Shown: positions 22,546 to 41,301, numbered from the stretch's first letter. The stretch is 64,000 nt of DNA from Pseudomonadales bacterium (GCA_020632265.1 JACKFW010000001.1:919272-983271); one strand, 5' to 3'. The notes: generated by a model from the letters alone, not told the origin. Made by a program: numbers and translations.

Positions 22546-22554
22546 GGAAATATT

Positions 22555-23610: not shown

Positions 23611-23632
23611 TATCAACCAATAGAAATAGTAT

Positions 23633-24835: not shown

Positions 24836-24906
24836 TTTTACTATTGCACTTGGTAAGGAAAATGTTGTAAAGTTAATATAAGCATTTAATAAACAAATTA
24901 GTTATT

Positions 24907-24921
24907 GTAATTAAATTACAG
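24907..24921. promoter_or_regulatory. 15-bp perfect palindrome TGTAATTAAATTACA immediately upstream of the major pilin RBS
   Basis: Seen in sequence, 10 nt before aggaaaaaaaatATG. Confidence 0.25.
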
Positions 24922-24931
24922 GAAAAAAAAT

Positions 24932-25579
24932 ATGAAAAAAGCCTTTTTAAAAATTTTTGCCAAAGTTAATAGTATTGGCGGTTTCACTATGATTGAGCTC
25001 CTGATTGTGATTGCAATTTTAGGTATTTTGGCTGTTGCAGTTCTTTCTGCAATCAATCCAATTGAGCAAATAAACAGAGGAAGGGATACTGGATCTAGAT
25101 CTGATGCAGAACAATTGCTCAGCGCAATTGATAGATATAATGCCTTTCAAGGATATTATCCATGGAAAACGGGAGCATCTGATGCAACTGCTCACGTAAT
25201 TGAGTCTGCCTTGACTAGTTGGACTACAGCTGCATCTTTTGTTGATACTGGTGGAACTTGTCCAGTTTCAGAGAAACTTGGTACTGCAACAACTGCTGGT
25301 TGTATTGGTGCTGATGAACTTAAAGACACCTTTTTCAACAGATTATTTGATACTGGATATAATCATTTGAGTATTTATAATTCGGGTACACAAGGTGCTA
25401 GTACTTACGTATGTTTTGTTCCAAAATCAAAAGCATTCATTTCTGAGGCTCAAGCAAGATGCGTCGACGCTATTGGAACTGGTTTGCCATCAGATATTAA
25501 TGCAGCCAATAAAGCAACAATTTGTGCGGGTTGGGCAGATCCAACTCCAGCCAATCCAGTATGGGTGTGTCTTCCATAG
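24932..25579 (+). CDS. Type IV pilin (probable major pilin), class III signal peptide
   Basis: Leader MKKAFLKIFAKVNSIGG | FTMIELLIVIAILGILAV (prepilin cleavage/methylation motif). Cys pairs in the C-terminal domain. Confidence 0.75.
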   Translation: MKKAFLKIFAKVNSIGGFTMIELLIVIAILGILAVAVLSAINPIEQINRGRDTGSRSDAEQLLSAIDRYNAFQGYYPWKTGASDATAHVIESALTSWTTAASFVDTGGTCPVSEKLGTATTAGCIGADELKDTFFNRLFDTGYNHLSIYNSGTQGASTYVCFVPKSKAFISEAQARCVDAIGTGLPSDINAANKATICAGWADPTPANPVWVCLP

Positions 25580-25778: not shown

Positions 25779-26597
25779 ATGATTACTATATCTTTTCTAC
25801 TTGTGACCACTTTTTTGTTTGTGTTCGGCACGGTTTTAGGGAGTTTTTTGAGTGTAGTTATTTTGCGTTCAATATCTGGTGAAACTTGGGTTAAGGGTAG
25901 ATCGAGGTGCGATAGTTGTAAAAATGTAATATCTTGGTATGACAATATCCCTTTACTCTCTTTTCTAATTCTCAGAGGGAAATGCAGACATTGTCAGAAA
26001 CCAATTCTTCCTTTGCATCCAATGGTCGAAGTTTTGACTGGACTTTTATTTATGTGGTGGTATTGGGGAGGCTTCATTTTTTTCAAACTTACTCAGACAC
26101 CTTTTAGTATTATGCAACCTATCTTTTGGTTAGCCGTAGGTCTTATTCTGATATATATTTTTATTATTGATCTTAATTACATGATAATTCCTGATAAGGC
26201 AGTGATTACTTTGGGAGGATTAGCAATAATCTATCGTCTATCCTTGGTGGCTTTTGGAATTATGCAATTTAATGATTTAGTAACGACAATTCTTGCCGCT
26301 CTAATTACTTCTGGATTATTTTTTGCTCTTTGGTTTTTTACTGGAGGGAATGGTATGGGTTTTGGAGACGTGAAGTTGTCAATTCCATTAGCATTATTGC
26401 TTGGTGCTCAAAAAACAATTGTTGGGATGTTTTTGGCTTTTGTAATTGGCGCAGTTGTAGGTTTGATCTTAATGATCTTTGGAAAAAGTAAAATGAAATC
26501 AGCAATTCCTTTCGGTCCTTTTTTAATTATTGCTACGGTAATTAGTCTTCTATGGGGAGATTTAATATATTTCTGGTATTGGTCCCTAATTTCTTAA
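25779..26597 (+). CDS. pilD: Prepilin peptidase (A24 family) PilD
   Basis: N-terminal zinc-ribbon CDSC...CRHC, DNIPLLSF and a multi-TM peptidase core with conserved Asp (GFGDVKL). Confidence 0.8.
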   Translation: MITISFLLVTTFLFVFGTVLGSFLSVVILRSISGETWVKGRSRCDSCKNVISWYDNIPLLSFLILRGKCRHCQKPILPLHPMVEVLTGLLFMWWYWGGFIFFKLTQTPFSIMQPIFWLAVGLILIYIFIIDLNYMIIPDKAVITLGGLAIIYRLSLVAFGIMQFNDLVTTILAALITSGLFFALWFFTGGNGMGFGDVKLSIPLALLLGAQKTIVGMFLAFVIGAVVGLILMIFGKSKMKSAIPFGPFLIIATVISLLWGDLIYFWYWSLIS

Positions 26598-26674
26598 TTT
26601 TTAGCTTGTTAATCATTTGTTTCTATTTCTGAAATATGCTTTAATAGTACTAGAGAGATTCTAGATATTTTTTT

Positions 26675-27634
26675 ATGCGTATTTTAAAACTAATTTTTAG
26701 TGCAACAATTTTTTTTATTGTTCTTATTGTTATTAGTTTTTTTGTGTCACGTGAAGTTTTACTTTATTGGGGTAGCTCAAAAATAAAAAGTTCTCTTAGG
26801 ACTCTTTCTCAGGCTAAAATTAGAGGTTCATTTCAATCTCAATGTTTACAATTAGGAAGTACAGAGGCCGGTGGTGAAGATTTAGTGACATATCAACTTC
26901 GATTTTTATCATCAAAAGATTTTTTGCTGGAAGCAATTTGTAATCAGTTTTCTTTTGATCCAATCTTGATTGAAAAAATTTCATTACCTCAATTTGTCAC
27001 AAAAGTTCCAGGAAGTTCTGGTTTTCTTATTAATCAAAGCCAGAGCGGGATTGAAATTCAGGTTTTTGCAGATGAAATAAATAAAATTTCTGCAGGACTA
27101 AAGGTTGATTTGTCTTCTTTGATAAAAACTCGTGCTTTGGTGGCAGAAAATGGAATGATCGTTCTGGATAGTAAAAATGGATTTATCGGTGGCGGTCCAA
27201 TCACTAGTTGTAATGGATATGGATATTATTGCTGTCAAGAAGTTTCCCAATTAGGAGTTGGAGATAAAATTACCGGTTTAGTAGATTGTGAAAAATCATG
27301 TTACTCTTCATGTACACAAAGACCAATAATATTATCATTCAATACAAATCCACTTTTTGACCCAAATTATAGAATTGTAAATATCAATAGTGGAGAAACC
27401 ATTGAATTTACCTATGTTGCAGATGCTGGCAAAGAAACCACAGTTGGTGGAGTTTTAGATTTTGGAGATGGAAAAAAATTACCAGTAACTGGACTTGCTG
27501 GTCAATCTTCTCACACCTATACTTGCAATAGGACTCAATGCGAATATTTAGTTCAGCTGACTCTTGAAGATAATTGGGGAGTTGAATCTTCAGAAACAAA
27601 TATTAGCAAAATAAATGTTGTGGTAAATAATTAA
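26675..27634 (+). CDS. Cys-rich secreted/anchored hypothetical protein within the pilus operon
   Basis: N-terminal TM helix, then a region with CNGYGYYCCQE...CEKSCYSSC and a C-terminal beta-rich (PKD-like?) segment. No confident family assignment. Confidence 0.35.
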   Translation: MRILKLIFSATIFFIVLIVISFFVSREVLLYWGSSKIKSSLRTLSQAKIRGSFQSQCLQLGSTEAGGEDLVTYQLRFLSSKDFLLEAICNQFSFDPILIEKISLPQFVTKVPGSSGFLINQSQSGIEIQVFADEINKISAGLKVDLSSLIKTRALVAENGMIVLDSKNGFIGGGPITSCNGYGYYCCQEVSQLGVGDKITGLVDCEKSCYSSCTQRPIILSFNTNPLFDPNYRIVNINSGETIEFTYVADAGKETTVGGVLDFGDGKKLPVTGLAGQSSHTYTCNRTQCEYLVQLTLEDNWGVESSETNISKINVVVNN

Positions 27635-27714
27635 TAATTATTCTAGCTTAGAATATAATAGCTTAGAAAAATGCAATAGATTAACGCATACCTAATCTAA
27701 AGAAAGAAAGAAAT

Positions 27715-28137
27715 ATGAATAATCTTAGGCGCAATAAAATAATGGGTTTTACATTACTTGAAATATTAGTAGTGATTTCTATTATTGGAATACTGATTGC
27801 TATTGGATCAGCGGCATTTAGTACTGCTCAGAAAAAAGGCAGGGACGCAAGAAGAAGAGCTGATATGAAACAATATCAAAGTGCTTATGAGCAATATTAT
27901 TCTGTTAACAGTGCATATAGTGCAAACTGTGCCACAATGGACATAAATTTTTCTGGAGGTGCATCCGCAGCTCCTAGTGATCCTAAAAATAGTGGTTCAT
28001 ATGTTTATACTAAAACTTGCACTGCGAGTACATATTGCGTATGTGCCTTATTAGATAATGCAGGTAGTGGTACATATACGGATTCTGGTTGTACTGTCGG
28101 CACAGGAGATTACTTTTGTGTGCAAAACTTACAATAA
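27715..28137 (+). CDS. Prepilin-type (GspG-like) pilin/pseudopilin
   Basis: MG|FTLLEILVVISIIGIL...GRDARRRADM (GspG-like), Cys-rich C-terminus. Confidence 0.7.
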   Translation: MNNLRRNKIMGFTLLEILVVISIIGILIAIGSAAFSTAQKKGRDARRRADMKQYQSAYEQYYSVNSAYSANCATMDINFSGGASAAPSDPKNSGSYVYTKTCTASTYCVCALLDNAGSGTYTDSGCTVGTGDYFCVQNLQ

Positions 28138-28170
28138 ATTAATGAATTATTAAAAGATAATGAGGTATTT

Positions 28171-28638
28171 ATGAAGAATTTATTAAGACAAGTCACTAAT
28201 TTGAGAAATAATTTTCATAATAATTTTCATAATAATTATGGTTTTACTTTAATTGAGCTTTTAGTTGTTACAACAATTATTGTTATTTTATCTGCAATTG
28301 GTATGGTGAGTTTTACAAATGCAGGTATGGGGGCAAGAGATGCTAAACGAAAATCAGATCTTGAAACGGTTAGACAGGCAATTGTTTTGTATAGAAGCGA
28401 TGGTAACGGATATCCAACAGCAACAGATTACACTGCTCTAGTGAGTTTGTTATCTAGCGGAACTCCAAAATATTTGAGTTTGCCAACTCCTACTGATCCA
28501 AAACCACCTGCGGCTTATTTTTATAAGGTTGGATCTGGCACCTTTTGTCTTTGTGCGGGAATGGAAAAGGCTTCTAATGCCAATGCTAATGGTTGTATTT
28601 CTCCCAATACCAATGCATATTGTGTAACAAATCCTTAA
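28171..28638 (+). CDS. Prepilin-type (GspG-like) pilin with Asn/His-repeat leader
   Basis: Leader ...NNFHNNFHNNYG|FTLIELLVVTTIIVIL...GARDAKRKSDLE. Confidence 0.7.
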   Translation: MKNLLRQVTNLRNNFHNNFHNNYGFTLIELLVVTTIIVILSAIGMVSFTNAGMGARDAKRKSDLETVRQAIVLYRSDGNGYPTATDYTALVSLLSSGTPKYLSLPTPTDPKPPAAYFYKVGSGTFCLCAGMEKASNANANGCISPNTNAYCVTNP

Positions 28639-28658
28639 AAAGTTTTAAAAACAATTAT

Positions 28659-29216
28659 ATGACTCTGCCCTACTCAAATTTTTTAAGATCGAATTCCCAA
28701 AAATATAAAATTCTTGGTTTTACCTTAGTTGAAATGATAGTGACCATAGCTATTATGCTAGTAGTAACTGGAGGAGGAATTGCGGCTTTTATTAACTTCA
28801 ACGATAAACAAAATGTTCAAGTAGCCGTTAAAGATTTACAGACTTTATTAAGATCGGCACAAACAAAAGCTCGGGTTGGTGAAGATGCACAACTTTGTAA
28901 TACAGTTTACAATAATTCACTTAGAGGATATAGGGTTTTTATCGGCGAAGGAACAAATACAGCAATTTTATCCACTTCTTGTGCATCAGATAAGTTTGAT
29001 CCAGCTGATAATAGAAATTATGTTGAAAGAAGCAGAATTACTTTTGATAGTAGTGTTACTGCGAAGATGTTGGGAGATGGTGATGTAAACATTGAATTTT
29101 TATCATTGTTGGGTGGTACTGATGGAACTGGAACAGTTGTGATTTCTGGTTTAACAGATGTTTATCAATTTGAAGTTAGTCAGAGCGGTGAAATTACAGA
29201 GGGACAATTTCAATAA
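28659..29216 (+). CDS. Prepilin-type minor pilin (start re-called at ATG 28659)
   Basis: MTLPYSNFLRSNSQKYKILG|FTLVEMIVTIAIMLV. The track ORF start at 28593 overlaps the previous gene, so I prefer the first ATG after it. Confidence 0.6.
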   Translation: MTLPYSNFLRSNSQKYKILGFTLVEMIVTIAIMLVVTGGGIAAFINFNDKQNVQVAVKDLQTLLRSAQTKARVGEDAQLCNTVYNNSLRGYRVFIGEGTNTAILSTSCASDKFDPADNRNYVERSRITFDSSVTAKMLGDGDVNIEFLSLLGGTDGTGTVVISGLTDVYQFEVSQSGEITEGQFQ

Positions 29217-29233
29217 TCGAATAATTATTTGAT

Positions 29234-29863
29234 TTGTTATTAATTAATCGGAAATTTGTAAAACAAATGATCAAAGAATCGACATTAACTAGATTGATTA
29301 AATATATTAAAATAAATAAATTTGTTGGATTTAGTTACAAAAGATTTAGAAAAAGTTGCTCGAATAACAGTGGCTTAAATAACAGTGGCTCGAATAACAT
29401 TTGCTTGAATAACAGTGGCTCGACAATTATTGAATTGCTAATTTCATTGATGATTGTCGGTTTGATAGTTACAGCGATTGCAGTAGCAGGAACATACTCA
29501 GTTAAGAACACTGGAGAGGCTCGTTTTAAACAAGTTGCCACAAATCTTGCCCAAGAAGTAATTGAGAAGTCTAGAACCGAAAAAGATCGCTTAGGCTTTC
29601 TTAACTTTAATAATGCTGTTGGAGAAAAAACATATTGTTTTAATTCAATTCCCAATGACTATAATGTTTTGCCAAACCCTGGTTCTTGTGTGATAGGTGA
29701 TGTTGTGACTGTTGCGGGAGCTGATTTTACCAGAGAAGTGATTTTTAGTTTTAAAGATGTGCTTACTACTGAAATTGAAGTAAATGTTTATTGGAGTGAT
29801 GCTGACAATACTCGATCGGTTCAACTTATTCAACAATTGACAAAACCATATCAGGGATCATAA
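29234..29863 (+). CDS. Prepilin-like protein with long NNSG-repeat leader (start uncertain)
   Basis: ...NNSGLNNSGSNNICLNNSG|STIIELLISLMIVGLIV, a class III signal-like motif preceded by 15-bp DNA repeats (aataacagtggct). Confidence 0.45.
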   Translation: MLLINRKFVKQMIKESTLTRLIKYIKINKFVGFSYKRFRKSCSNNSGLNNSGSNNICLNNSGSTIIELLISLMIVGLIVTAIAVAGTYSVKNTGEARFKQVATNLAQEVIEKSRTEKDRLGFLNFNNAVGEKTYCFNSIPNDYNVLPNPGSCVIGDVVTVAGADFTREVIFSFKDVLTTEIEVNVYWSDADNTRSVQLIQQLTKPYQGS

Positions 29864-29867
29864 AATT

Positions 29868-30389
29868 TTAATTTCTCAAATTTACAATAGAATTAAAATG
29901 TTCTGTAACGGTTCCATCAGGAGTGATTTTTTGTAGTTCAAAATCAATTCCGATTTGTCTGTTGCCCACAGGTCCATTACAATCAAATTTCGGGTCACTT
30001 GAAATAGTGACGGCTCCAGAAGTAAGGGCACTACTGTTGGAGGCAATTTTTTCATAATTATCTACATCCGTAATTTTTGCAAACGTGGTAGTTCCATTAT
30101 CTGCAGAAATTATGGCAATACTGGTCATTCCTGAGGTGCAAGGAGTTATATTTTCGTCTACATATAAAGCATTTTTTAACAAAAACTCAATTTGACTAAG
30201 CGCATGGATGCCTTCTTCCTTGACTGTCTTTTTTGTATTAGTTTTGGAACTTCCAAGTAAAAAGGTCATAAAAAGTGATGAGATACCAAGCATTAATAAA
30301 GTAATTAAAGACATAGAAATAACAAGTTCTATAAGAGTAAAACCTTTGTTTTTTGAAGAACTGATATATTTTAAGGGATAGCTGATCAT
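29868..30389 (-). CDS. Prepilin-type pilin (minus strand, convergent with the plus-strand pilin block)
   Basis: MISYPLKYISSSKNKG|FTLIELVISMSLITLLMLGI. Confidence 0.65.
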   Translation of the reverse strand: MISYPLKYISSSKNKGFTLIELVISMSLITLLMLGISSLFMTFLLGSSKTNTKKTVKEEGIHALSQIEFLLKNALYVDENITPCTSGMTSIAIISADNGTTTFAKITDVDNYEKIASNSSALTSGAVTISSDPKFDCNGPVGNRQIGIDFELQKITPDGTVTEHFNSIVNLRN

Positions 30390-30411: not shown

Positions 30412-33400
30412 CTAATTAACTTCTTGCCATACTATACTTGGTTTCATCATAATAGTCGGAACATTGATATTAAAATCAGGTCTAAATATAAACGTTTCAA
30501 TAGGATTTAAATTATTTAATTGTTTATCAGTGATATCATTGGTGTTTTCATAGTCTCTAGTAAGATTTATACCTGACCAGCCTACAAACGTACCAGCCCC
30601 AACAAATTTATTGTCTTTTAAAGTATCATCATTTATGGGGTCATCGCTATAGCCTTTGACATTAATAGAACCATCTGCAACAAACACACCTTCGACGTTT
30701 GTATCTAGGTTTGTTTCGTTTGTGTTTCCTATGTTGGCATCAAAATTAATATCACCACTAACTATAAAGGCGATAAATCCACCCGGTTCAACAGTTAACA
30801 TTCTTGTATCTTGATTTGAAGTGAGGGATAAGTTTCCATTTACAAAGATAACAATATTTCTAGAACTAACGACATTTTGTGTTGTAGAGAAATCAATGGA
30901 TAAGTCGCTATTACTGTAATATATTTCTGTGTCGGATTCAGCTCCGGGATCGGAAGGAATACTGTTTATAGTTCCAGAAATAGCAGTTGCTGCTCCCAGA
31001 TCAACTTCACTTGCAAAGAAATTGTAGTTTTCTTTGATTAGGTTTTCATGAGTGGTATTTTCAGCCTTTGGGTCGTTTGCACCTCTTTCTGAATTGTATC
31101 CATTAGTAGAAACTGCGTTTCCTGACATTGGAATTCCAGCAGAATTTGTGTCTGAGTCTAGGTTCATGGTAACTGCATCTGGTTTGCAGATTGCCGTATT
31201 GTTGACATCATAACAGGTTTGGGGAATGTTGGTAATAAAACTATCCGCTCCATAAGCATTTCCTCCTACAACTTGCCACCAAGGTCCATTGGAAAGATTG
31301 ACTGTTGTGACATAAAAATGCTCATTTAGATTTGGAGAAATTGAGTCAGTGTGAGTGCATATTAAAGGATTGTTTCCAACCGGACAACTACAAATTAGAA
31401 TGTTAGCTGGATTAGCACTATTGTCTATTTCAAGAGAAGTAGTAAATCCATAATCGTTCCATTGTGATGACGGAGCATATGGGACATTTAACCTTGTATA
31501 GCTATCAGTGAGAGTCGTAGCTTGATCGCCAATACTGCCATAGACTGAAGATCCCGGATAGTTTGAAAAATCTATGGGATCTGTATCATCACCAAGGCAA
31601 TTACCACCAATCAGACTTGGAGATGGATCAATGTAAAAATTACCTCTAACTTGTGCAACAAGTGTATATCCAGATTTATCAGACCATGGGCCAGAAGCTG
31701 GTGTACAAGGGATAGCATTTACTGCACTAACTGCAACATACAGGTCATTATCATAAATATGGCTTGGAGTTGTAATGGTGTAGGTTTCAACTTTGTTTGC
31801 TGTTTGGTAATTAAAACAGTCTGATGAAGTATTACATGGATCAGGACGGTTTGGTCCTCTATCTTTATCCCATACGTTGATTTGGTAATAGTCGATTGTC
31901 GAGTTAGGATCAGGTGTTCCTGGATCATCCCAAGTAACAGTTAGATTATCATCTAAAGTTAAATCCAGATTACTGTTTGGATCTTGACCATTAATTCTAA
32001 CATTGGTTACTTGGTTTGGAGTTGCACCTGTATCTCCACACTCAGTTCCTCCACAAGAAGGTGTACAGGCTACAATTGATTGTGTACTACCACATGCGTC
32101 TATATAAGTAACTCCTAGTTCACCACAGTTAGAGGGATTTCCTGATGTGAGATTACCTTGGATATCAGAAACATTTACAATTACATAATAATCTCCCTCA
32201 GACATTCCAGAGGTGTCCCATAATATTTGGTAAAAGTCTGTATTAGAAATTCTTGTTCCTGCGCCCAATTCTGTCCAGTTAGCAGGATCACATGGGTCGT
32301 ATGTTGCAGGCATATAATAGAATTTAACTGTATCTTCATCTACCCCCGCTGTATTGGTTTTGAATAATTTCACTGAGTCGTAATATACCGGCGAGTCGTC
32401 TTGAGGAGGTCTTAGAACAACTCGAATTCTAGTAGTATGTGATCCGTTGTTAGGATTTGGGAACGTTAAATTATATTTAAACCTTGTCCAGCTATCAGGA
32501 TAGAATATTGGATCTATTATAAATACTCCGGTGTCTGTCCAGTCGCCAAGATAGGGATATCTTTGTATAAGAATATATTGCACAAGTTTTGGATACTGAT
32601 GAGATTTTCCTAAAAATGTGAGGGTATATTCTTGATCTGTTAGGTTTTCCCCGGTTTGCATCCATCCTGTTGCCACATGGGGATCTGAATTATTTGCTCT
32701 TGAAAGTTTTGCATAGAAGATACCATCAATTCCGGGAGAAGAAAAAGCACCACTATTCACTGCATACCATTCGTTAATGTTATTAAGTGTTGGCCAATAT
32801 GAAACTGTGCCACTCTCAAAGCTATGGTCGGGAAGAATATTTATGCCATCATCAGTGATCTCTGCTATATATTGTGCTATTCCTCCAGTATTGACAGTTG
32901 GAGATGTAACTTGGAAGCTAGGACATTGAGGAGCTTCATCCTCTGCTGTTGCTACAACTGTAATATTTACAGTAGAAGAACATCTCGAACTACCACCCAT
33001 ATAACCATTAGCAGTTATAGTTGTGGTGCCGGGATAGTCACCGGTAACTAAAGTGGTGTAAGGACTTGAATCATCAAAATCTGGAGAAACAGTTGCTATA
33101 CTGCTATTTAAGCTCGAAAAAGTTACATGACTTATACTTCCATTTTGAACGTTCGATGTAATTGCATTTAGTTCAACGGTGTATCCGGTAGCAACTTGTG
33201 ATGAAGTAACGGGTGTTAGAGAAATATTGCAACTGGGATCAGCTGTTGGTGTGGCCGTTGGTGTGGGCTCGGAATTACAAGCATCGCAATTAGTAGCACA
33301 GGTTCCTTGAGCTACTTGTCCTAAGTTTTGACAAAAGCCACCGTTGGGTTGAGAACAGGAATAACACCATTCCATCCCAGGGGAAGCAGTAGGCGTTGGA

Positions 33401-34437
33401 GTTGGTGTAGGCGTTGGTGTTCCAGCTGGTGGTGGATTCCAAGAGCAAGATTCACTTACTGGTGGATTGCAATAATCAGTATCATTTGGACAGCTAAGTC
33501 CTTCATCCGAACATGCATCCGGCTCGCTTGCATTGCAATTTAAATGTTTAGTACCAAAACAACTGGTTGAAGCGCAATTATTGCATTTGCCAAGCAGTCC
33601 TGGACCACAATCTCCATTAGGGGGGTTGAAGCAAGGAGCACCACCTAGATCACAAGTACAGTTTATATATCCTTTATATTCACAAACATAGCCACCGTCA
33701 CAGTAATCTGCAGCATATACTCTGGGAAAAATATTTTCTAGAATCCTAAATGAAAGAATGTTTGTTTCAAATTTAAATTTAAATAGGCTTTCATTATTCC
33801 TTATTTTTTGATCTACAAAAGTTTGAATTTTACCAAAGACTGTTAAATCTTCAGTGATTATTGATGATAAATATAATGGTCGAATAATATTATAATGAAA
33901 AATAATTCTCAACGAGGCAACTCCCTCATTTTTCAAATTTTGAAGATATTGTTTGTCAAGATAGATATAGTAGGTTAAGATTTCTGTATTATAGTCATAG
34001 GAATTTTTATAACCTTGCATGATAGAGTTATTAAATTGAAATGGAAATATGAGAGATGATTGCTCTTCTTGATTTAAAGATACAATATCATGAAATTCAA
34101 ACATTATTAATTTTGGATTGACAAACTGATTGCCACCTAAAACACGAAGTGAACTCAAATCCACTGGAAATCCTGGTTGAGAAAGTATTTCATCAAAAAA
34201 TGTTTGATTAGAAGAATCAGAATCAATTTGAAACCCTTTAATATCTGATTGAATTTTAAAAGTAATTGCTTCTTTGGTTGCTGTATAGTGAATATATTCT
34301 GTTTCTGATATTGTGTCAGAACTTTTTAGTTTCCAAATAAGTGCTAGCAAAGCAGTTATAAATAAGAAAACTAGAAAAAGTATTTTTGTGTTTTTTTTCA
34401 ACAACATAATTAACTCATTATGTAAGAAATAATGCAA
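30412..34437 (-). CDS. Giant (1341 aa) Cys-rich surface protein with PT linker and Ig-like (Big_2-like) domain; candidate pilus-associated adhesin
   Basis: N-terminal TM/signal; a dense Cys cluster (CDGGYVCEYKGYINCTCDLGGAPCFNPPNGDCGPG...); PTPTPTPTPT linker; VATGYTVELNAITS...TVNITVVA resembles bacterial Ig-like group 2 domains. Beta-rich C-terminal repeats. Co-oriented with the downstream pilin 29868-30389. Confidence 0.5.
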   Translation of the reverse strand: MHYFLHNELIMLLKKNTKILFLVFLFITALLALIWKLKSSDTISETEYIHYTATKEAITFKIQSDIKGFQIDSDSSNQTFFDEILSQPGFPVDLSSLRVLGGNQFVNPKLIMFEFHDIVSLNQEEQSSLIFPFQFNNSIMQGYKNSYDYNTEILTYYIYLDKQYLQNLKNEGVASLRIIFHYNIIRPLYLSSIITEDLTVFGKIQTFVDQKIRNNESLFKFKFETNILSFRILENIFPRVYAADYCDGGYVCEYKGYINCTCDLGGAPCFNPPNGDCGPGLLGKCNNCASTSCFGTKHLNCNASEPDACSDEGLSCPNDTDYCNPPVSESCSWNPPPAGTPTPTPTPTPTASPGMEWCYSCSQPNGGFCQNLGQVAQGTCATNCDACNSEPTPTATPTADPSCNISLTPVTSSQVATGYTVELNAITSNVQNGSISHVTFSSLNSSIATVSPDFDDSSPYTTLVTGDYPGTTTITANGYMGGSSRCSSTVNITVVATAEDEAPQCPSFQVTSPTVNTGGIAQYIAEITDDGINILPDHSFESGTVSYWPTLNNINEWYAVNSGAFSSPGIDGIFYAKLSRANNSDPHVATGWMQTGENLTDQEYTLTFLGKSHQYPKLVQYILIQRYPYLGDWTDTGVFIIDPIFYPDSWTRFKYNLTFPNPNNGSHTTRIRVVLRPPQDDSPVYYDSVKLFKTNTAGVDEDTVKFYYMPATYDPCDPANWTELGAGTRISNTDFYQILWDTSGMSEGDYYVIVNVSDIQGNLTSGNPSNCGELGVTYIDACGSTQSIVACTPSCGGTECGDTGATPNQVTNVRINGQDPNSNLDLTLDDNLTVTWDDPGTPDPNSTIDYYQINVWDKDRGPNRPDPCNTSSDCFNYQTANKVETYTITTPSHIYDNDLYVAVSAVNAIPCTPASGPWSDKSGYTLVAQVRGNFYIDPSPSLIGGNCLGDDTDPIDFSNYPGSSVYGSIGDQATTLTDSYTRLNVPYAPSSQWNDYGFTTSLEIDNSANPANILICSCPVGNNPLICTHTDSISPNLNEHFYVTTVNLSNGPWWQVVGGNAYGADSFITNIPQTCYDVNNTAICKPDAVTMNLDSDTNSAGIPMSGNAVSTNGYNSERGANDPKAENTTHENLIKENYNFFASEVDLGAATAISGTINSIPSDPGAESDTEIYYSNSDLSIDFSTTQNVVSSRNIVIFVNGNLSLTSNQDTRMLTVEPGGFIAFIVSGDINFDANIGNTNETNLDTNVEGVFVADGSINVKGYSDDPINDDTLKDNKFVGAGTFVGWSGINLTRDYENTNDITDKQLNNLNPIETFIFRPDFNINVPTIMMKPSIVWQEVN

Positions 34438-34486
34438 TAATGCAAGTTAGATAGATGCAGGAAATTTTTGTTAAAATCCGATGTGG

Positions 34487-36115
34487 TTATTCTTCAAAAA
34501 ATTCCGGATATGCTGCAATTACTTTAGTAAATTCAATAGGTGCTGATGGATAATTATAACCCTCTCCAAGGGATTGTTTAGCACGATCAAAGCGCGTAGA
34601 CGAGAACATAGTACGATATGCAGCGTCACGCGCAGCACTTTGTGTATGTTCTCTTTGTGTTTCAAAATCAAGCCCAAAAATTTGTGTTCCAGCGAAAAAT
34701 ATTGTGTTTAAGACATTACCGGCACCAATATTATTGCTATCCACTTCCACCATTCCCTCACCAACCTGGACTATATGATAGATAATATTAGGCTTAGCTG
34801 GATCTATAAATATGCCTACGCCAGATTTATTGTCGTCTGAACCAATTATATACGGCAAAACCAAGCGAACTTCTGTGCCATCGGTAAGTGTGGCATTAAA
34901 CCATCTGGCTTCAGATCCAGGAACTACATCAAATATAGAAATAATTTTAAGTTCTGGACCGAGATTAAACGGAATTTCCAAATATCCGTTGGTCTTCAAA
35001 TCTAACACTGGCATGAGATAACTTAAAGTATCTCCATCACCGCTTAATGAATTTTCCACTTCTTCTCTTGTGACATTGGGATTAATATCTAGAATCCTAG
35101 CAAGAAAAATTTCAGCCAAATATTTGTTAAATAACTCAACACTATCTGGTCTTGTTAATTCTAAAGTACCCAATGTCCCAATAACTTGTTCTGAAAACTC
35201 TTTGGTAAAATACATTTCATGGTGAGGACCAAACTCATCCCCTAACAATGTTCCTTCTCCTTCATGTCCAATAAAAGATGCAATCTCTGTTTCCCCCAAC
35301 AAAGCTTCTTCAACAGTATCGTAGCGTTTAGCTTCTATTTCCTCAGCTACTAGAGCCATAGTATCTTCTGTTGCTTCAGCTTCATTTGTTTCAACCGTAG
35401 TATCTTGTGTTGCTTCAGCTTCAGATGTTGTTGTAGTAGTTGGTGCAGGTGTACCATCACTTTCTGATAGAAACCATTCGTGATTTGTTGGTTCTGGTGT
35501 AACTTGTTTACCAATTATGAGTTCGCCGTTATCGTTTGTACCATATACATAAGTGGTGCCTTTATTTGAACGCACTACTAAAGCAGTTACTATTTTAGCT
35601 TGATGTTTTTCTGCCCAATCAATTGCCTCTTGCAATGGTATTCTAGTTGATACTATCTCATTTTCAGGAGTTTTAGTTAGAACAATTGTTTCATCTCCTA
35701 CATTAAAAAAGGCTACTGTATTTCCATTATCAACAAATTCAATATTTGATTCAGGAGTTGCTCCTTCTTCTATCGCAGCTTCTAAAAAATCAGAATCTGT
35801 AATAGTTGTCATGGGTGGTTCGGGAGGCGTTGATCCCGATGATGCTTCAGGTTGTTCGGGAGGCGTTGATCCTGATGGTGCTTCAGAAGTAGGAGCCTCT
35901 CGAGCTGCAACTGGTGGGATGCCACCACTTTGATTCGTAATTGCTTCTGGATCTTCGACTAAACTAGCTGGATTATTTGGGATATCTTGATCCACTTGTC
36001 GGGGTGTATCACAAGAAGATGTAGTTATTAAAATAAATGCAAATAAAATAAAACCAACTGCTTGCTGCATTTTATGATGTTCACTTAGAAAATGCTTAAT
36101 ATTGTCGTGCCCCAT
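34487..36115 (-). CDS. Lipoprotein-like secreted hypothetical protein (542 aa) with Pro/Glu/Thr-rich repeats
   Basis: Signal plus near-lipobox MQQAVGFILFAFILITTSSC, then EAPSGSTPPEQPEASSGSTPPEPP repeats. Sits upstream in the same operon as the giant protein. Confidence 0.4.
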   Translation of the reverse strand: MGHDNIKHFLSEHHKMQQAVGFILFAFILITTSSCDTPRQVDQDIPNNPASLVEDPEAITNQSGGIPPVAAREAPTSEAPSGSTPPEQPEASSGSTPPEPPMTTITDSDFLEAAIEEGATPESNIEFVDNGNTVAFFNVGDETIVLTKTPENEIVSTRIPLQEAIDWAEKHQAKIVTALVVRSNKGTTYVYGTNDNGELIIGKQVTPEPTNHEWFLSESDGTPAPTTTTTSEAEATQDTTVETNEAEATEDTMALVAEEIEAKRYDTVEEALLGETEIASFIGHEGEGTLLGDEFGPHHEMYFTKEFSEQVIGTLGTLELTRPDSVELFNKYLAEIFLARILDINPNVTREEVENSLSGDGDTLSYLMPVLDLKTNGYLEIPFNLGPELKIISIFDVVPGSEARWFNATLTDGTEVRLVLPYIIGSDDNKSGVGIFIDPAKPNIIYHIVQVGEGMVEVDSNNIGAGNVLNTIFFAGTQIFGLDFETQREHTQSAARDAAYRTMFSSTRFDRAKQSLGEGYNYPSAPIEFTKVIAAYPEFFEE

Positions 36116-36396
36116 ACTTTTTAATCCTATATTTTTATAATTAATGATTTGTTGTTAATAAATTTTTTTATTTATAGTCTTTAATATTTTTTAATTTGAT
36201 CTTACCCTAATTATATAACATAGTCTTATAATAAATCAATATATATCAAATACACATTACGATTTTTAATAGTAATCATATCAGAAGTTCTAATATACTA
36301 TGATTATATATGACAATATAACAAAATGACAAAGTGACTTCAATAATGTTGATCAAGATCTTATTTTAGATTTTGTTTAAATTTATGCATTTATTG

Positions 36397-36969
36397 TCAA
36401 TATAAATTCTTTTGATTATTTTTATCCATATTTTGAGAAATAAGTTTTCTAATAAACGATGCTTTAGAAATCCCTTCTTTTTTTGAATATTCCTGAATAT
36501 GGGAACTTAATTTTGGTGAAAGCATGAGATTAAAGCGAGATTTTCCTTGATTGTTAGCAAAACTTATTGAATCATTAAGGATTTTTTTTAAATTTTTGGG
36601 TTCATATTCAATTAATTGAAAATTGTCGTCTTCTATTCCTAAAATAAATCCTGGTTCATGTTTATTAATGTATAATGCAATAACTGGAATTCTAAGGTCT
36701 AAAGCATACTTTATCAAATATCCCATCGTTAAACTATGAGTAGATACTTCTAAGATTACAACTTCAGATTTTTTTATTAATTTTAATGCGTTATTGTGTA
36801 CTTCAGTTTTGTGATTATCAGATGAGGAATAAAATTTATTTGGATCAGTATTAATTTCATAATTATCAGTGTTTTTATGTTCAAGGTTTGAAATTAAATT
36901 ATGAATGATTTTATAGTTTAGTTTGATTTCTTTTGGCGCTCTTGCAGATGCAGTAAAATATATATTCAT
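36397..36969 (-). CDS. Flavodoxin-fold (TIR / nucleoside-2-deoxyribosyltransferase-like) domain fused to a C-terminal ribbon-helix-helix: paralog A
   Basis: Start re-called at MNIYFTAS by alignment with paralog B (track ORF extends 13 aa further). Shares IFYTAS.R, SEVVILEVSTHSL(T/S)MG, PVIALY and IEY with B. The tail RFNLMLSPKLSSHIQEYSKKEGISKASFIRKLI has an RHH beta-alpha-alpha pattern. Confidence 0.45.
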   Translation of the reverse strand: MNIYFTASARAPKEIKLNYKIIHNLISNLEHKNTDNYEINTDPNKFYSSSDNHKTEVHNNALKLIKKSEVVILEVSTHSLTMGYLIKYALDLRIPVIALYINKHEPGFILGIEDDNFQLIEYEPKNLKKILNDSISFANNQGKSRFNLMLSPKLSSHIQEYSKKEGISKASFIRKLISQNMDKNNQKNLY

Positions 36970-36982
36970 AATATTATTTTTT

Positions 36983-37954
36983 TCAATAATTTTTGCTGTC
37001 ACAAACAATTTTAATTTGAAAGAATCCGTGAAAACTTATTTTTGGCAATCCAATATATTCAATTTTAATATTTTTGAAACCACATTTATTAAGAAGAAAT
37101 TTCCATTCTGAAACGCTCTTAAATTGAAAAGGTAGATTCATTTTAGTAAGTCCTTGAGTCACGATATTTCCATAAAAATCCATTAACATGACCGACTCCA
37201 TTTGAGATTTTGGAGATAAATTCAAGAATTGTTCAGTGATTTTCTTGTTTTTATTGAGATTATTTTTTTTAATGTATTTAGAGTCAAAAACATCTTCAAT
37301 GATAATGAGTCTTTTGGAAATTTTAGAAAGTTCAGTAATTGTGTTGATAAGATTGCTTTTTGATATATGATGTAAAACAGTTATTAATATTGATGTATCA
37401 TTTTTGATAATTCTTTTTGAGATGTCTGAAGAAGAATTAATTTTGATGAATGGAATACTGCTTTGTTTGATTTCTCTATAATCTAATACATCACTTGAGA
37501 TAATTTTAAATCCTTTATCCAGAATCAATTTTGACATATAGCCTTTACCAGAGCCAAAATCAAGAATTTTTTCTCCTATAATGTCATTCTTTATTATTGA
37601 ATAGTAATAGTTTGGTTTCAAAAATGATTTATACAAATCATATTCTTTATAAAACTCTTCGGCCTTATTCTTTGAATAAATATTTTTTGAAATAAAGTTA
37701 ATTGAATTTTTAAGATTTATGATACTTAGATTCTTTTGTTGACTTTCTTGTAGAATTTTAAAAGTTTGATCAATTAATATTGAAGAATATTTATTTGATG
37801 AAAATATACAATGATAATGCTCTGTAATAACATATTTAACAAATTCAATTACATTTTCATTTCTTAATAATTTACATAGATTTATACTATTTACAACATC
37901 AGTAAGAATAGTTTCCGAATGAAAGTTCTGAATTATATTATTTCGAAATGTCAT
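36983..37954 (-). CDS. Class I SAM-dependent methyltransferase
   Basis: Motif I ILDFGSGKGYMS followed by an acidic residue at the end of beta2 (KIISSDVLD). 323 aa. Directly upstream of paralog A on the same strand. Confidence 0.6.
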   Translation of the reverse strand: MTFRNNIIQNFHSETILTDVVNSINLCKLLRNENVIEFVKYVITEHYHCIFSSNKYSSILIDQTFKILQESQQKNLSIINLKNSINFISKNIYSKNKAEEFYKEYDLYKSFLKPNYYYSIIKNDIIGEKILDFGSGKGYMSKLILDKGFKIISSDVLDYREIKQSSIPFIKINSSSDISKRIIKNDTSILITVLHHISKSNLINTITELSKISKRLIIIEDVFDSKYIKKNNLNKNKKITEQFLNLSPKSQMESVMLMDFYGNIVTQGLTKMNLPFQFKSVSEWKFLLNKCGFKNIKIEYIGLPKISFHGFFQIKIVCDSKNY

Positions 37955-38001
37955 GTAGTTAAAGTATAATTAAAAATCGTAGGTTGGAATTATAACAGAA
38001 A

Positions 38002-38123: not shown

Positions 38124-38696
38124 ATGAAAATTTTTTATACTGCTTCTCTGAGAGGTATTAAAACAAATAGAGAAAAATTGCAAAACATTTATAATCTAAT
38201 AGAAAAGTTAGGGCATAAAAATCTTGACAAAGTACTATTTAATATTGAAGACAAAGATAAATTTTATAATGGAAAGCATGCTGAGAAAATTAGCCATTTT
38301 CAAAGAATGATACGGTCTATAAAACAATCTGAAGTTGTAATCTTAGAAGTATCTACTCATAGCTTATCAATGGGTTTTATTCTACATAAAGCCCTCGAAA
38401 TGAATAAACCCGTCATTGCACTATACCAACCAGGAAATCCCCCATTTTTTGCCCAAGGCATTGAAAATGATAAATTACAAGTAATCGAGTACACAGAATC
38501 TGATTTGGAAAACATACTCAAGGATTCAATAGACTATGCTCAAGGAAAATCAGATGTTAGATTTAATTTTTTTATTTCACCCGAAATTGGAAATTATCTA
38601 GATTGGATCTCAAAAGTAAAGAAAATTCCTCGCTCGGTTTATTTGCGAACTCTAATTGAGAAAGATATGGAAAAGAATAGTGAGTTTAAATCATAA
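38124..38696 (+). CDS. Flavodoxin-fold (TIR / nucleoside-2-deoxyribosyltransferase-like) domain fused to a C-terminal ribbon-helix-helix: paralog B
   Basis: MKIFYTASLRG...SEVVILEVSTHSLSMGFILHKALEMNKPVIALY...RFNFFISPEIGNYLDWISKVKKIPRSVYLRTLIEKDM. About 45% identical to paralog A, with the same 190-aa length. Confidence 0.45.
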   Translation: MKIFYTASLRGIKTNREKLQNIYNLIEKLGHKNLDKVLFNIEDKDKFYNGKHAEKISHFQRMIRSIKQSEVVILEVSTHSLSMGFILHKALEMNKPVIALYQPGNPPFFAQGIENDKLQVIEYTESDLENILKDSIDYAQGKSDVRFNFFISPEIGNYLDWISKVKKIPRSVYLRTLIEKDMEKNSEFKS

Positions 38697-38813: not shown

Positions 38814-39617
38814 ATGTATAAAGTGTATCCAATGATCCCAACCAAAAATCAGCAAGGCCAAATAGCCATAGTAATTTTATTAATCATGGTAGTGTTATTA
38901 ACAATTGGTTTGTCTCTTGCTTCAAGAACAACTCAGGAAGTTTTTCTTTCTCAACAAGAGGCTGAATCTACCAGAGTATTCAATGCTGCTGAATCAGGAG
39001 TCGAAGACGCTTTATCACAAGATTTTTCAGCAATGTCTGGAACTCAAAACCTTCCGAATGTTGGAATTGATAACGTTACAACAAATACCACAATTATTCC
39101 TCAAGGAGTGATTGAGACTCAAATCACCGAAGGTACTTCTGTACACCTAGATTTAACAGGAATTGCTGGTGGCTCTCCGATTACAATTGAATGGTCTAAA
39201 AATTCTGATTGTGACAATTCCGCTTCACTGATCGCCACAACATATTATGACGACGCGGGAGAAACTAAAGTAGTTCATGATCCTTTTGGACCAGAACTTC
39301 CTTGCACTTCACCTAGAGACGTTGATGATTTTACTAGAGAACCAAGTGTTGACGCCGTCTATAAGTACAAGCACACTCTTAATTTGCCAACTGGCATTGG
39401 TGTAACGCCATTATTTATGAGAATTAAAGCCGTTTATGCTGATACACCTCTCAGGGTTACTGGAGCTGAAGCCACCAATCAATACTTTATTATCAGAGCT
39501 GAGGCAAATAATGATCTTGGAGATGAAAGTCGTACTATCGAAGTTGGCAGAGGTCTTTCGACAGCACCATCATTTATGGATTATGCCTTGTACTCTGGAG
39601 GTACATTAGGACAATAG
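38814..39617 (+). CDS. PilX-like type IV pilus assembly/minor pilin-like protein
   Basis: N-terminus NQQGQIAIVILLIMVVLLTIGLSLASRTTQEV resembles the PilX N-terminal domain. Located immediately upstream of pilMNO. Confidence 0.45.
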   Translation: MYKVYPMIPTKNQQGQIAIVILLIMVVLLTIGLSLASRTTQEVFLSQQEAESTRVFNAAESGVEDALSQDFSAMSGTQNLPNVGIDNVTTNTTIIPQGVIETQITEGTSVHLDLTGIAGGSPITIEWSKNSDCDNSASLIATTYYDDAGETKVVHDPFGPELPCTSPRDVDDFTREPSVDAVYKYKHTLNLPTGIGVTPLFMRIKAVYADTPLRVTGAEATNQYFIIRAEANNDLGDESRTIEVGRGLSTAPSFMDYALYSGGTLGQ

Positions 39618-39652: not shown

Positions 39653-40672
39653 TTGGAAGATCATATGCCTGCCGTAGCATTAGACATTGGAACATATAGT
39701 ATTAAAGCAGTACATGCTAAACCTGGAAAAGTTGTGGAGGTTCAACGTGTTGTTGAAGTTTTCAATGAAACGGGTATTGCTTTACCAACAGATGATGTAA
39801 GCGTGGCTAAACTCAAAGAACTGCTAGATTCTTTTTTTGGTGATAATGAATTGCCAAGAAACGATGTACGTCTATCTCTTCCAGAAACAATTATTTCAAC
39901 CAAAGTTATAAATATTCCCCCACTTTCTGATGCTGAATTAGCATCCGCAATTGGTTGGCAAGCAGAACAACATATTCCAATTCCTCCAGAAGAGCTTTCT
40001 CTTGAATATCAAGTCCTTTATCGGCCTGAAAAAAGAGAAAATAAACAAATGAGAGTCTTACTTGTTGGAACTAGAAAAAGAATGGTGGAGAGGTATGTAG
40101 CAATGTTTAATGAAATTGGAATTGAGCCCTCATTACTTGAAACTCAAATAATTTCAGTAATTAGGTCGCTTCAATTTACTCAAGAAGATCCAACGACTTT
40201 GATTGCTCATATTGGCTCATCAAGTATGAATTTGTCAATTGTTATGGCAGGTGAACTCAAGTTTGTGATTTCACAGATGAATGGTGGTCAAATGCTTACA
40301 AAAGCATTGGAAACATCAATTGGGTTGGACTCTGCTCAAGCAGAACAATATAAAAGAAGTTATGGACTTGATGGTTCGCAATTTCAAGGCAAAGTTAAAG
40401 AAGCTTTATTGCCTGCAATGAATATGTTGTTAGCTGAAATTAGAAAATCAGTTCAATTTTTTGTAAATCAAAATCCCCAAGATACAGTTCAAAGAATTGT
40501 TCTGTCTGGTGGAACTGCATTATTGCCTGGAATAGTTCAACATATTACCAATGAACTTGGAGTTGAGGTGCTTATTGCCTCTCCTTTTTCAGGTGCAAAA
40601 GGACAGGTTCCAGAAAATGTCAATCACCCTGCAATGAGTGTTTGCATGGGACTTTTACAACGTGAGATGTAA
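39653..40672 (+). CDS. pilM: Type IV pilus assembly protein PilM (actin-like)
   Basis: ALDIGTYSIKAV N-terminal phosphate-1 motif and the ...LSGGTALLPG adenosine motif. 339 aa. Confidence 0.75.
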   Translation: MEDHMPAVALDIGTYSIKAVHAKPGKVVEVQRVVEVFNETGIALPTDDVSVAKLKELLDSFFGDNELPRNDVRLSLPETIISTKVINIPPLSDAELASAIGWQAEQHIPIPPEELSLEYQVLYRPEKRENKQMRVLLVGTRKRMVERYVAMFNEIGIEPSLLETQIISVIRSLQFTQEDPTTLIAHIGSSSMNLSIVMAGELKFVISQMNGGQMLTKALETSIGLDSAQAEQYKRSYGLDGSQFQGKVKEALLPAMNMLLAEIRKSVQFFVNQNPQDTVQRIVLSGGTALLPGIVQHITNELGVEVLIASPFSGAKGQVPENVNHPAMSVCMGLLQREM

Positions 40673-40697
40673 TATACAAACTAGTTATTAAGTCATA

Positions 40698-41300
40698 ATG
40701 TCAAAATCAATCAATTTTGTTGGAGATAGAAGAAAACGTCTCACAAAAACTCAAAAACAAGACAAAAAAATTATGGGCATCATGATTAATGTTGTAATTG
40801 CAATTTTTGCAATTTTTTTAATTGTTTTAGGGTTGAGAGTTTTTTATGTTTTTAGAGTAAAGTCAGTCAAGGATGAGCAAATTAGTGTTAAAAATATCAT
40901 TCTTTCACATGAGAGTGTTGAGAAAGAATATATTATTTTTGCTCAAAAATTAAAAAAATTAGCAGTATTTTTTGGAAAAAGAAAAGATAAGCAGGAAGCG
41001 CTAGTATTTTTTAGTGAAGTTTTTGGTGATGAAGTTATTGTAAGTGGGATTGATTATAGTTCTTCAGATGAAGACGTGGTTTCATTTGTTATTAAGGCTC
41101 CAAATATCTTTGTGATGGAGAGAGTTTTTACTACTATAGATTCTGTTGATGTAGCTTCTAAATATCCTAATATTACTAAGAAAAATATGAGACGCTCAAG
41201 TACGGGTAACTATACTGTAGATTTGACAGTTATACTGGTTGCTGAGGCTGATTTAGTTGGATCACAACCAGTTAGTCCAAATTCGGAAGGTATTCAATAA
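40698..41300 (+). CDS. pilN: PilN-like inner-membrane pilus alignment protein
   Basis: Basic N-terminus, a single TM (IMINVVIAIFAIFLIVLGL) and a periplasmic domain. Position after pilM. Confidence 0.5.
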   Translation: MSKSINFVGDRRKRLTKTQKQDKKIMGIMINVVIAIFAIFLIVLGLRVFYVFRVKSVKDEQISVKNIILSHESVEKEYIIFAQKLKKLAVFFGKRKDKQEALVFFSEVFGDEVIVSGIDYSSSDEDVVSFVIKAPNIFVMERVFTTIDSVDVASKYPNITKKNMRRSSTGNYTVDLTVILVAEADLVGSQPVSPNSEGIQ

Positions 41301-41301
41301 G

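Follow-up and report, generated by a model that had tools for sequence, protein, structure and literature searches.

A very large family of C-terminal beta-solenoid domains and a candidate type IV pilus tip adhesin encoded beside a minor pilin in a bacterium of the Candidate Phyla Radiation

How Candidate Phyla Radiation (CPR) bacteria, or Patescibacteria, recognize and hold their hosts is largely unknown outside a few cultivated Saccharibacteria. A locus in a 64,000-nucleotide stretch of DNA assigned to a Pseudomonadales bacterium (GCA_020632265.1, JACKFW010000001.1:919272-983271; hereafter the window), a label that fits its content poorly (see below), raises the question of what a giant predicted secreted protein of 1341 amino acids (aa) does directly upstream of a pilin gene and amid a complete type IV pilus (T4P) cluster. 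We found that the conserved, family-defining element of this protein is its C-terminal domain of about 300 aa (the tail), which marks a very large, uncharacterised family, and that in a large clade of this family a pilin gene follows directly. We tentatively propose, with slightly less than even confidence, that the giant is a non-pilin secreted T4P tip adhesin, a functional analogue of PilY1/PilC that combines a conserved docking tail with a variable binding head. A preliminary description of this DNA, which had called the three minus-strand open reading frames (ORFs) of the locus at exactly the coordinates that we obtain, had read the giant as a pilus-tip or pilus-associated adhesin without singling out the tail; its observation is confirmed and its interpretation partly supported. 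That a large non-pilin protein works with minor pilins at the T4P tip is known from other bacteria; new, within the searchable literature, are the tail domain used, its separation from the pilin, the transmembrane (TM) and lipoprotein-like partners described below and the wide spread over CPR bacteria and Chloroflexi. What the locus suggests for the uncultivated Microgenomates/Pacebacteria branch is a solution unlike that of the Saccharibacteria.

The ORF of the giant spans 4 kb in DNA of 36% G+C and has thousands of homologues, so it is not a chance ORF. A word-index search retrieved only six relatives, all similar only over the C-terminal part, and an exhaustive profile search with the last ~300 residues recovered 3,390 cluster representatives (clustered at 50% identity) at an expectation value (E) of 1e-3 or less, 860 of them at 1e-30 or less. 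The tail lies at the extreme C-terminus of every listed member, whose lengths range from about 300 to 1,600 aa, and 128 of 151 representatives end two to three residues past a conserved WxE motif (e.g., WQEVN, WQETN). The usual N-terminus among relatives is a Sec signal peptide, immediately after which comes a Cys-rich stretch; the representatives display a signal peptide or signal-anchor, and a prepilin motif is found in none of the 151. Upstream of the tail are variable heads with Big_2, fn3, von Willebrand factor A (vWA), discoidin (F5/8-C), TSP1 or Hint modules, which, by these domain assignments, are of the adhesion type. In two divergent members that are unlinked to T4P genes (L041:6402-8486 and L047:6435-8480), the N-terminal domain is vWA (E 1e-6 to 3e-15), a module with which PilY1 and S. 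sanguinis PilB work at pilus tips.

Searches of Pfam and NCBIfam with residues 1038-1341 of the giant returned no model, even with the threshold relaxed to E<=10. Within the tail, 6 of 77 relatives reach DUF7305 (PF23981) at E<=0.001, and a member from L042 matches it over residues 593-658 with 28.7 bits against a cut-off of 27, which suggests a distant relationship; these matches cover about 65 of the 185 model positions, and most family members, the window's domain included, do not score. Unlike DUF7305, the tail family is much longer (~300 aa) and has N- and C-terminal motifs of its own. We found no paper that mentions DUF7305, and no description of the tail family in the literature on CPR pili.

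An AlphaFold2 (AF2) model of residues 1038-1341, built from 77 sequences with high internal confidence (predicted local distance difference test, pLDDT, 92.8; predicted template modelling score, pTM, 0.90), displays a short pattern of three strands per turn, that of a beta-solenoid. In a Foldseek search of the PDB with the tail, ice-binding proteins come out on top (6eio at E 2.7e-3, FfIBP at E about 0.2, TM-scores 0.34-0.48), and ComZ of Thermus (6qvi) follows at rank 13 (E 0.77); in a viral structure library DUF3494 proteins come first at non-significant values. The best structural matches are DUF3494/IBP-1 ice-binding proteins (TM-score up to 0.48 on the target), from which the tail differs in having no sequence or Pfam match to them and in a model with short helices only and no long alpha-helix along the solenoid; there is no reason for expecting ice binding. 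ComZ is a T4P tip pilin that binds DNA and the adjacent pilin PilA2, and the closest structural relative of its solenoid is FfIBP (PMC6561018), while the solenoid of cyanobacterial PilX, likewise resembling ice-binding proteins, has been put forward as a tip plug that takes the place of PilY1 (10.64898/2026.02.12.705559). The giant, as modelled, may share with ComZ and the cyanobacterial PilX/HpsA-type proteins a solenoid akin to ice-binding proteins, and its gene likewise lies beside a pilin gene; the likeness is weak and at the level of the fold, and we treat it as a lead and not as homology. In ComZ and PilX the solenoid is inserted in a pilin fold with an N-terminal hydrophobic helix, whereas the giant is a non-pilin (no N_methyl or PilX_N match in Pfam) with a C-terminal solenoid placed after FN3-like domains; its own N-terminal TM segment precedes an unrelated domain of ~200 aa, and the PilX-like protein of the cluster is a separate, compact gene product. 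The tapirins of Caldicellulosiruptor are beta-helix adhesins encoded beside a T4P locus. They lack the tail domain, and their matches in the fold search are not significant (E about 4.5).

Beta-solenoids are often hydrolytic (PMC6561018), and the approximately 35 strongly conserved tail positions could mark an active site, in which case the solenoid would be a polysaccharide lyase or hydrolase or a cell-wall-modifying enzyme, the N-terminal domains would target its substrate and the pilin linkage would be incidental. We regard this as very improbable: Gly, Phe, Trp, Pro and Ile make up most of the conserved positions, next to a few Asp, Glu and Arg, the tail alignment shows no conserved cluster of His, Lys or Ser, Pfam and NCBIfam yield no match to a glycoside-hydrolase or lyase family, pectate-lyase-type folds match at non-significant E only, and the nearest fold class, that of ice-binding proteins and ComZ, is non-enzymatic. 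The preliminary description had left room for an enzyme fold; the modelled parts of the giant are FN3/Ig-like domains and a beta-solenoid, with no recognisable enzyme among them.

The remainder of the giant bears out the adhesin-like modular architecture that had been claimed for it (Table 1). Its N-terminus is a Lys-rich signal-anchor (KKNTKILFLVFLFITALLALIWKLK, residues 11-37); the membrane anchor reported before is confirmed and belongs to an extension of ~230 residues that is a separate gene in most relatives. The dense Cys cluster, also noted earlier, accounts for 21 of the 38 Cys of the protein and is interspersed with two Pro/Thr linkers, one being the previously noted PT run (TPTPTPTPTP at residue 340) and the other lying at about residues 391-401; in relatives the corresponding Cys-rich stretch begins right past the signal-peptide cleavage site. 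The predicted Ig-like domain was recovered as a Big_2 domain scoring above its Pfam threshold. The beta-rich region that comes next, common to a subset of relatives from about residue 535, has no Pfam match, a sequence search of the PDB with residues 500-796 returned nothing useful, and its first part looks, by eye only, like a carbohydrate-binding jelly-roll. It is followed by two predicted FN3/Ig-like domains: for an AF2 model of residues 787-1341 (555 residues, 51 sequences, pLDDT 89.6, pTM 0.80), a Foldseek search of the PDB was dominated by tandem FN3 structures (E about 1e-4), which align with the first ~250 residues, and the Pfam fn3 match at residues 829-869 is weak (21.8 bits against a cut-off of 25). 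A sequence search of the PDB with the whole giant likewise gave nothing useful; across these searches, those with the tail profiles described below included, the only matches were to FN3 at E 0.075 or worse. The "long beta-rich repeats" of the preliminary description are indeed beta-rich, though not repeats: self-comparison detected no internal sequence repeats, and the region consists of distinct domains, namely the two FN3/Ig-like domains and the solenoid.

In at least 21 related loci, a stand-alone protein of 133-240 aa with one N-terminal TM segment is encoded directly upstream of the tail-family gene, often overlapping it, and this TM partner adjoins the family gene in loci both with and without T4P genes. 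The window has no separate gene for it; instead, the giant carries the ~230 additional N-terminal residues, comprising the signal-anchor and a Cys-free domain, and the same extension is present in 12 other family representatives (13 of 151 are fused). A profile of the extension without the TM segment retrieved, by hmmsearch among 21 stand-alone proteins, those of L004, L008 and L001 at E about 2e-5, with 14-15 bits only, and a comparison of the fused extensions with all 21 stand-alone proteins in one alignment (hhalign) was not significant. With the TM segment left in, an iterative search wandered off to signal peptides, and its result was discounted. The junction motif P..(V/A)YA(A/Q).C is kept in 13 of 13 fused proteins, and the same c-region precedes the first Cys in unfused relatives. 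As the extension corresponds to a separate ~200-aa protein of relatives, is shared by 12 other proteins and retains the junction motif, the giant is probably a fusion of the TM-partner gene with an adhesin gene, and the signal-peptidase-like junction may be either a relic or a site that is still processed, at which the adhesin would come free of its N-terminal anchor.

The association with pili was assessed in 48 related loci, five reached through the neighbors of protein matches and 43 of 44 from a scan of GTDB species genomes; 47 of them have enough downstream sequence for a pilin tally, with T4P genes counted within 8 kb. A pilin gene lies directly downstream of the tail-family gene, on the same strand, in 21 of the 47, and all 21 face the same block of genes, namely those for a PilV-like and a GspH-like pilin, two pilins, a PKD protein, PilD, a pilin, PilC, PilT and PilB; the order of the window's convergent plus-strand block is repeated in at least 20 related loci. 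Four further loci have T4P genes nearby. The linkage holds even though the tails are only 35-57% identical to the query and, where measured (L001 and L002), the pilins, orthologs of the window's 173-aa pilin located directly downstream of the family gene, are only 32-38% identical. The conserved linkage to pilin genes that the preliminary description anticipated in relatives is thus found. In a rough neighbor-joining tree without support values, one large group consists mostly of T4P-linked tails, and the Chloroflexi copies nest in an unlinked CPR subgroup; pilin linkage is accordingly a property of a large clade and not of the whole tail family. In a mirror-tree comparison, tail and pilin distances correlate at r 0.73-0.84, similar to pilin-pilin pairs, and tail and PilD distances at 0.39; this signal for the tail and the pilins is weak and not specific, and it names no partner because the tail correlates with all pilins alike.

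Tandem family paralogs with different heads are found in L014, L021, L023, L024, L034, L041 and L042, the T4P-linked cases then having a single pilin gene, which fits the idea of exchangeable heads. The Chloroflexi copies (L009, L010 and L011 of Aggregatilineales, all on one 3.68-Mb contig, and L013 and L016 of Anaerolineales) number two to three per genome and are 42-43% identical to the query tail alignment, and in L009-L011 a 296-319-aa protein with a twin-arginine-like signal is encoded ahead of each family copy. These observations suggest that genes have passed between CPR bacteria and Chloroflexi.

The pilus cluster surrounding the giant is complete: PilB, PilT, PilC, PilD and six pilins on one side of the minus-strand trio, and a PilX-like protein and PilM/N/O on the other; no secretin is encoded in the window. 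The last gene of the trio is, as had been stated, a prepilin-type pilin. Its 173-aa product has an N_methyl match of 31.9 bits, a TIGR02532 match of 23.9 bits and the motif KGFTLIELV with Glu5, features that, with PilD present, define a type IV prepilin. It has no full-length PilW/PpdB match, PRK10557 matching residues 11-79 only (24 bits against a cut-off of 120), and its N-terminal part alone resembles PilW/PpdB/ComGF-type pilins. In contrast to ComZ and cyanobacterial PilX, the compact PilX-like protein (267 aa, beside pilM) carries no solenoid. Among 235 relatives found, no longer, solenoid-bearing form was detected, all 120 listed being 219-311 aa long, and the homologs inspected in L001, L002, L004, L037 and L040 end a few residues past P.FMDY(A/G/V)(V/L)(Y/F/V)SG... 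The C-terminal motif of the PilX-like protein (FMDYALYSGG.L in the window) is loosely like the PWWQ..GG..Y start of the giant's solenoid.

An established precedent is PilY1, which combines Sec export, a variable adhesive head and a conserved C-terminal domain with a gene located among minor pilins (PMC7541494). Like PilY1/PilC from the type IVa pili of Pseudomonas, Neisseria and Myxococcus, the giant is a large, non-pilin, predicted Sec-exported protein encoded with minor pilins. Unlike them, its C-terminus is a predicted beta-solenoid in place of a beta-propeller, no PilY1/PilC model scores (no PilY1 match in Pfam or NCBIfam at E<=0.1), its source organism has a single membrane, and it is accompanied by the ~200-aa TM partner and the lipoprotein-like partner. 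Membership of the PilY1/PilC family was considered and rejected on the missing model match and the solenoid model of the C-terminus; the comparison with PilY1 and PilC-type adhesins that the preliminary description had proposed does not extend to homology. In the Saccharibacteria, T4P and one large PilX protein are tied to host binding, and PilX2 of strain TM7x is dispensable for extruding filaments, though required for efficient host binding (PMC11623550). Adhesion modules that T4P deliver, as the giant would be, are also found in PilX1, PilX2 and S. sanguinis PilB, which differ from it in being pilins with an extra domain and in having no tail domain.

We favor the tip-adhesin reading since the layout of the giant matches that of PilY1 and its modelled tail groups by fold class with the tip solenoids already known; the protein would be a good, albeit unproven, candidate for host attachment. 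The PilX-like protein of this lineage, short and with no solenoid, moreover leaves a gap that a solenoid from another protein would fill. We envisage that the three minus-strand genes are co-transcribed and that the giant is exported by Sec, whereupon its solenoid, with the invariant free C-terminus WQEVN, would dock at the membrane on a minor-pilin priming complex composed of the GspH-like, PilV-like, PilW-like and compact PilX-like proteins. PilB-driven extension would carry this complex to the filament tip with the variable head outward, the head would bind a ligand on the host cell or another surface, and PilT-driven retraction would then bring the cells close to each other. Until loading, the adhesin could be held at the membrane of the single-membrane cell by the ~200-aa single-TM protein, here probably fused to it, and cleavage at the VYA/A junction may free the adhesin. 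If the tail does dock on the pilus tip, host-range determinants could be read from metagenomes as variable heads upstream of a recognisable tail, and the tail itself would be a concrete target for structural and binding studies.

A bolder version of the tip-adhesin reading, which we think rather unlikely, is a split tip in Microgenomates/Pacebacteria-type CPR bacteria: a separate, exchangeable adhesin would supply the solenoid that ComZ and PilX carry within the tip pilin, plug onto the compact PilX-like/PilW-like complex via the solenoid and WQEVN, and be loaded by the membrane-tethered ~200-aa protein as a chaperone. The idea of a split PilX stays speculative because no solenoid-bearing longer form occurs among the 235 relatives. 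Were it true, the pilus tip would be a cassette system in which tandem paralogs and hypervariable heads set the host range, and the tail would constitute a new, very large family of docking domains reaching the Chloroflexi.

Several results weigh against placing the giant at a pilus tip. No T4P gene lies within 8 kb in 22 of the 47 loci, which include every Chloroflexi locus in the tally (five of the six: three Aggregatilineales copies and two Anaerolineales copies) as well as the CPR members that diverge most; the physical pilus link that the preliminary description thought plausible remains no more than that. The mirror-tree comparison singles out no pilin and may reflect shared phylogeny and the fast evolution of extracellular proteins. 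The fold matches of the tail are weak (best E 2.7e-3, TM-scores 0.34-0.48, ComZ at E 0.77), searches of the PDB by sequence with two tail-domain family profiles (A1 and A4) returned nothing useful and so no sequence-level link to a solved structure, and hhalign detected no similarity between the tail profile and the PilX-like protein. Finally, the N-terminal TM anchor of the giant looks uncleaved and, unless processed, would tether the protein to the cell and not to a pilus tip.

The main rival, which we consider doubtful though serious, holds that the giant is an adhesin of the cell body that is merely co-regulated with the pili: the TM protein and the lipoprotein-like protein would anchor it in the cytoplasmic membrane, possibly via the solenoid, and pili would make contact and retract first, after which the adhesin would fix the cells to each other. 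Several loci unlinked to T4P genes (e.g., L003, L008 and L020) keep the trio of a large variable protein, the ~200-aa TM protein and the family protein, as this rival would have it, and the adjacency of the TM partner in at least 21 loci and its fusion in 13 of 151 representatives argue for a physical link with the TM partner rather than with the pilin. In this genome, the signal-anchor is what a tethered membrane protein of type II would have, and a similar two-step model has been proposed for Saccharibacteria (PMC11623550). A cell-body adhesin, however, leaves unexplained why a minor pilin gene lies directly downstream (22 nucleotides away in the window) across strongly diverged genomes and why a wall or membrane anchor would share the fold class of the ComZ/PilX tip solenoids, and a conserved tail with variable heads is equally consistent with docking to a conserved machine. 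Even with the giant on the cell body, the module would be a widespread surface-adhesin system of CPR bacteria.

The solenoid of ComZ also brings up a ComZ-like tip receptor for DNA uptake, in which the tail, alone or with the downstream pilin, would bind extracellular DNA for a pilus of the competence type in a nucleotide-scavenging organism. ComZ is a DNA-binding T4P tip solenoid (PMC6561018) found among the fold matches of the tail, the cluster encodes the retraction ATPase PilT, and the pilin at 27715-28137 has a weak ComP_DUS-like match (E 0.016, below the cut-off). We hold this improbable, given that the ComZ match is not significant (E 0.77) and that the head modules (Big_2, fn3, vWA and discoidin) are those of protein or glycan adhesion, pointing to the binding of cells or surfaces; ComEA, ComEC and DprA were neither sought nor noticed beside the module. 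Both the DNA receptor and the enzyme discussed above are possible readings with no specific support, and the tip adhesin remains the one that we favor.

The remaining member of the trio, the 542-aa protein, had been termed lipoprotein-like. Its hydrophobic N-terminal stretch does end in TTSSC, linkers rich in Pro, Ser, Glu and Thr follow, and the C-terminal part is globular; the lipobox-like sequence ILITTSSC has Thr at position -3, and no Pfam or NCBIfam model matches to back the term. Two relatives are known, one of which links it transitively to a 625-aa gene product at the same position in L004, and comparison with the genes at that position in most other loci turned up no similarity. The position is elsewhere occupied by large proteins, and in 9 of 30 (the window's gene counted) a TM segment occurs together with a lipobox-like Cys and a PT-rich linker, the lipobox-like sequences of the positional analogs being LSGC, LVSC, FAAC and LSAC, followed by PT-rich linkers. 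The lipoprotein-like protein, the TM partner, the adhesin with its solenoid tail and the minor pilin make up a four-part module whose order is fixed against the pilin/PilD block.

Table 1. Features of the locus, in order along the window (residue numbers refer to the 1341-aa ORF of the giant; the slash marks the putative cleavage point)
Feature	Position	Strand	Basis or remark
PilB	20035-22545	+	
PilB, PilT, PilC and one further pilin	20035-25579	+	pilin at 24932-25579
Convergent block: PilD, 319-aa TM/Cys/PKD protein, two PilA/GspG-like pilins, GspH-like and PilV-like pilins	25779-29863	+	model matches
PilD prepilin peptidase	25779-26597	+	
319-aa TM/Cys/PKD protein	26675-27634	+	between pilD and first pilin
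GspH-like pilin	28593-29216	+	
PilV-like pilin	29234-29863	+	
173-aa prepilin-type minor pilin, last gene of module	29868-30389	-	N_methyl motif, TIGR02532
Giant, 1341 aa from TTG	30412-34437	-	ORF call
Family-defining beta-solenoid, residues 1038-1341	30415-31326	-	starts PWWQ..GG.AYG, ends WQEVN
Two FN3/Ig-like domains, residues 810-1037	31327-32010	-	AF2 model m261fd9db2d95
Beta-rich region with no assigned family, residues 500-790	32068-32940	-	
Big_2 domain, residues 406-476	33010-33222	-	Pfam PF02368, E 3.9e-6, 27.2 bits, cut-off 22.8
Cys-rich region with two Pro/Thr linkers, residues 245-405	33223-33705	-	
Probable fusion junction, residues ~226-246	33700-33760	-	signal-peptidase-like motif ...IFPRVYA/ADYC
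Signal-anchor TM and Cys-free domain, residues 11-240	33718-34407	-	counterpart of stand-alone ~200-aa TM protein
542-aa secreted or lipoprotein-like protein, first gene of module	34487-36115	-	ORF
Promoter-like site TTGTCA-18-TATAAT	36303-36332	-	near-consensus match only
Two further genes in low-G+C stretch	36397-37008, 36983-37954	-	ORFs
Third ORF near low-G+C stretch	38124-38696	+	ORF
PilX_N-like 267-aa protein beside pilM	38814-39617	+	ends with PSFMDYALYSGGTL
PilM/N/O	39653-42093	+	

The real start of the giant is probably the ATG at 34407, which gives the 1331 aa of the public annotation (P0001, identical to the giant and located on a 1.08-Mb contig). Within the trio, the 542-aa gene and the giant are separated by 49 nucleotides and the giant and the pilin by 22. 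These short gaps, a promoter-like site upstream of the first gene and the lack of any convincing terminator found between the three genes make their co-transcription plausible from the sequence; a 281-nucleotide AT-rich spacer precedes the 542-aa gene, and matches to the promoter-like consensus are barely enriched over shuffled sequences (44 found against a shuffle mean of 35.4). The stops of the minus-strand pilin and the plus-strand PilV-like pilin are only 4 nucleotides apart, so the trio and the plus-strand pilin block converge, as the preliminary description had it.

The organism is best placed with the CPR, in a Microgenomates/Pacebacteria-like, ultra-small, single-membrane lineage. The Pseudomonadales label is ill-fitting, considering the 1.08-Mb contig, the G+C content of about 33% overall and the CPR-type gene content. 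The records of relatives are named Pacebacteria, Microgenomates or Patescibacteria, and many others, the source of the window (locus tags H6772_*) included, are labelled Pseudomonadales or Gammaproteobacteria; on metagenome-assembled genomes with this CPR-type T4P cluster, such labels look like systematic mislabels, Patescibacteria being indicated.

Among the other genes of the pilus cluster, the 319-aa protein combines a TM segment at its N-terminus with several Cys and a weak PKD domain. Its orthologs, 30-42% identical in L001 and L002, are found at this position in practically all T4P-linked loci, and the protein has the look of a conserved component of this lineage's T4P that has yet to be described. 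With ORF starts as called mechanically, the GspH-like and PilV-like pilins have leaders of about 40 and 60 residues, respectively, the latter with an NNSG(L/S)NNSGSNN repeat, and the GspH-like ORF overlaps the preceding pilin gene by 46 nucleotides; the true starts are probably further downstream, or else the leaders are unusually long. Upstream of the trio, the 2-kb stretch at 36000-38000 has 23.5% G+C against about 34% in its surroundings. Of the products encoded there and nearby, those of 203 and 190 aa are paralogs with faint likeness to nucleoside 2-deoxyribosyltransferases (E about 0.2), belonging to a family with three to five copies beside the T4P cluster in L001, L007 and L020, and the 323-aa product has a weak methyltransferase match.

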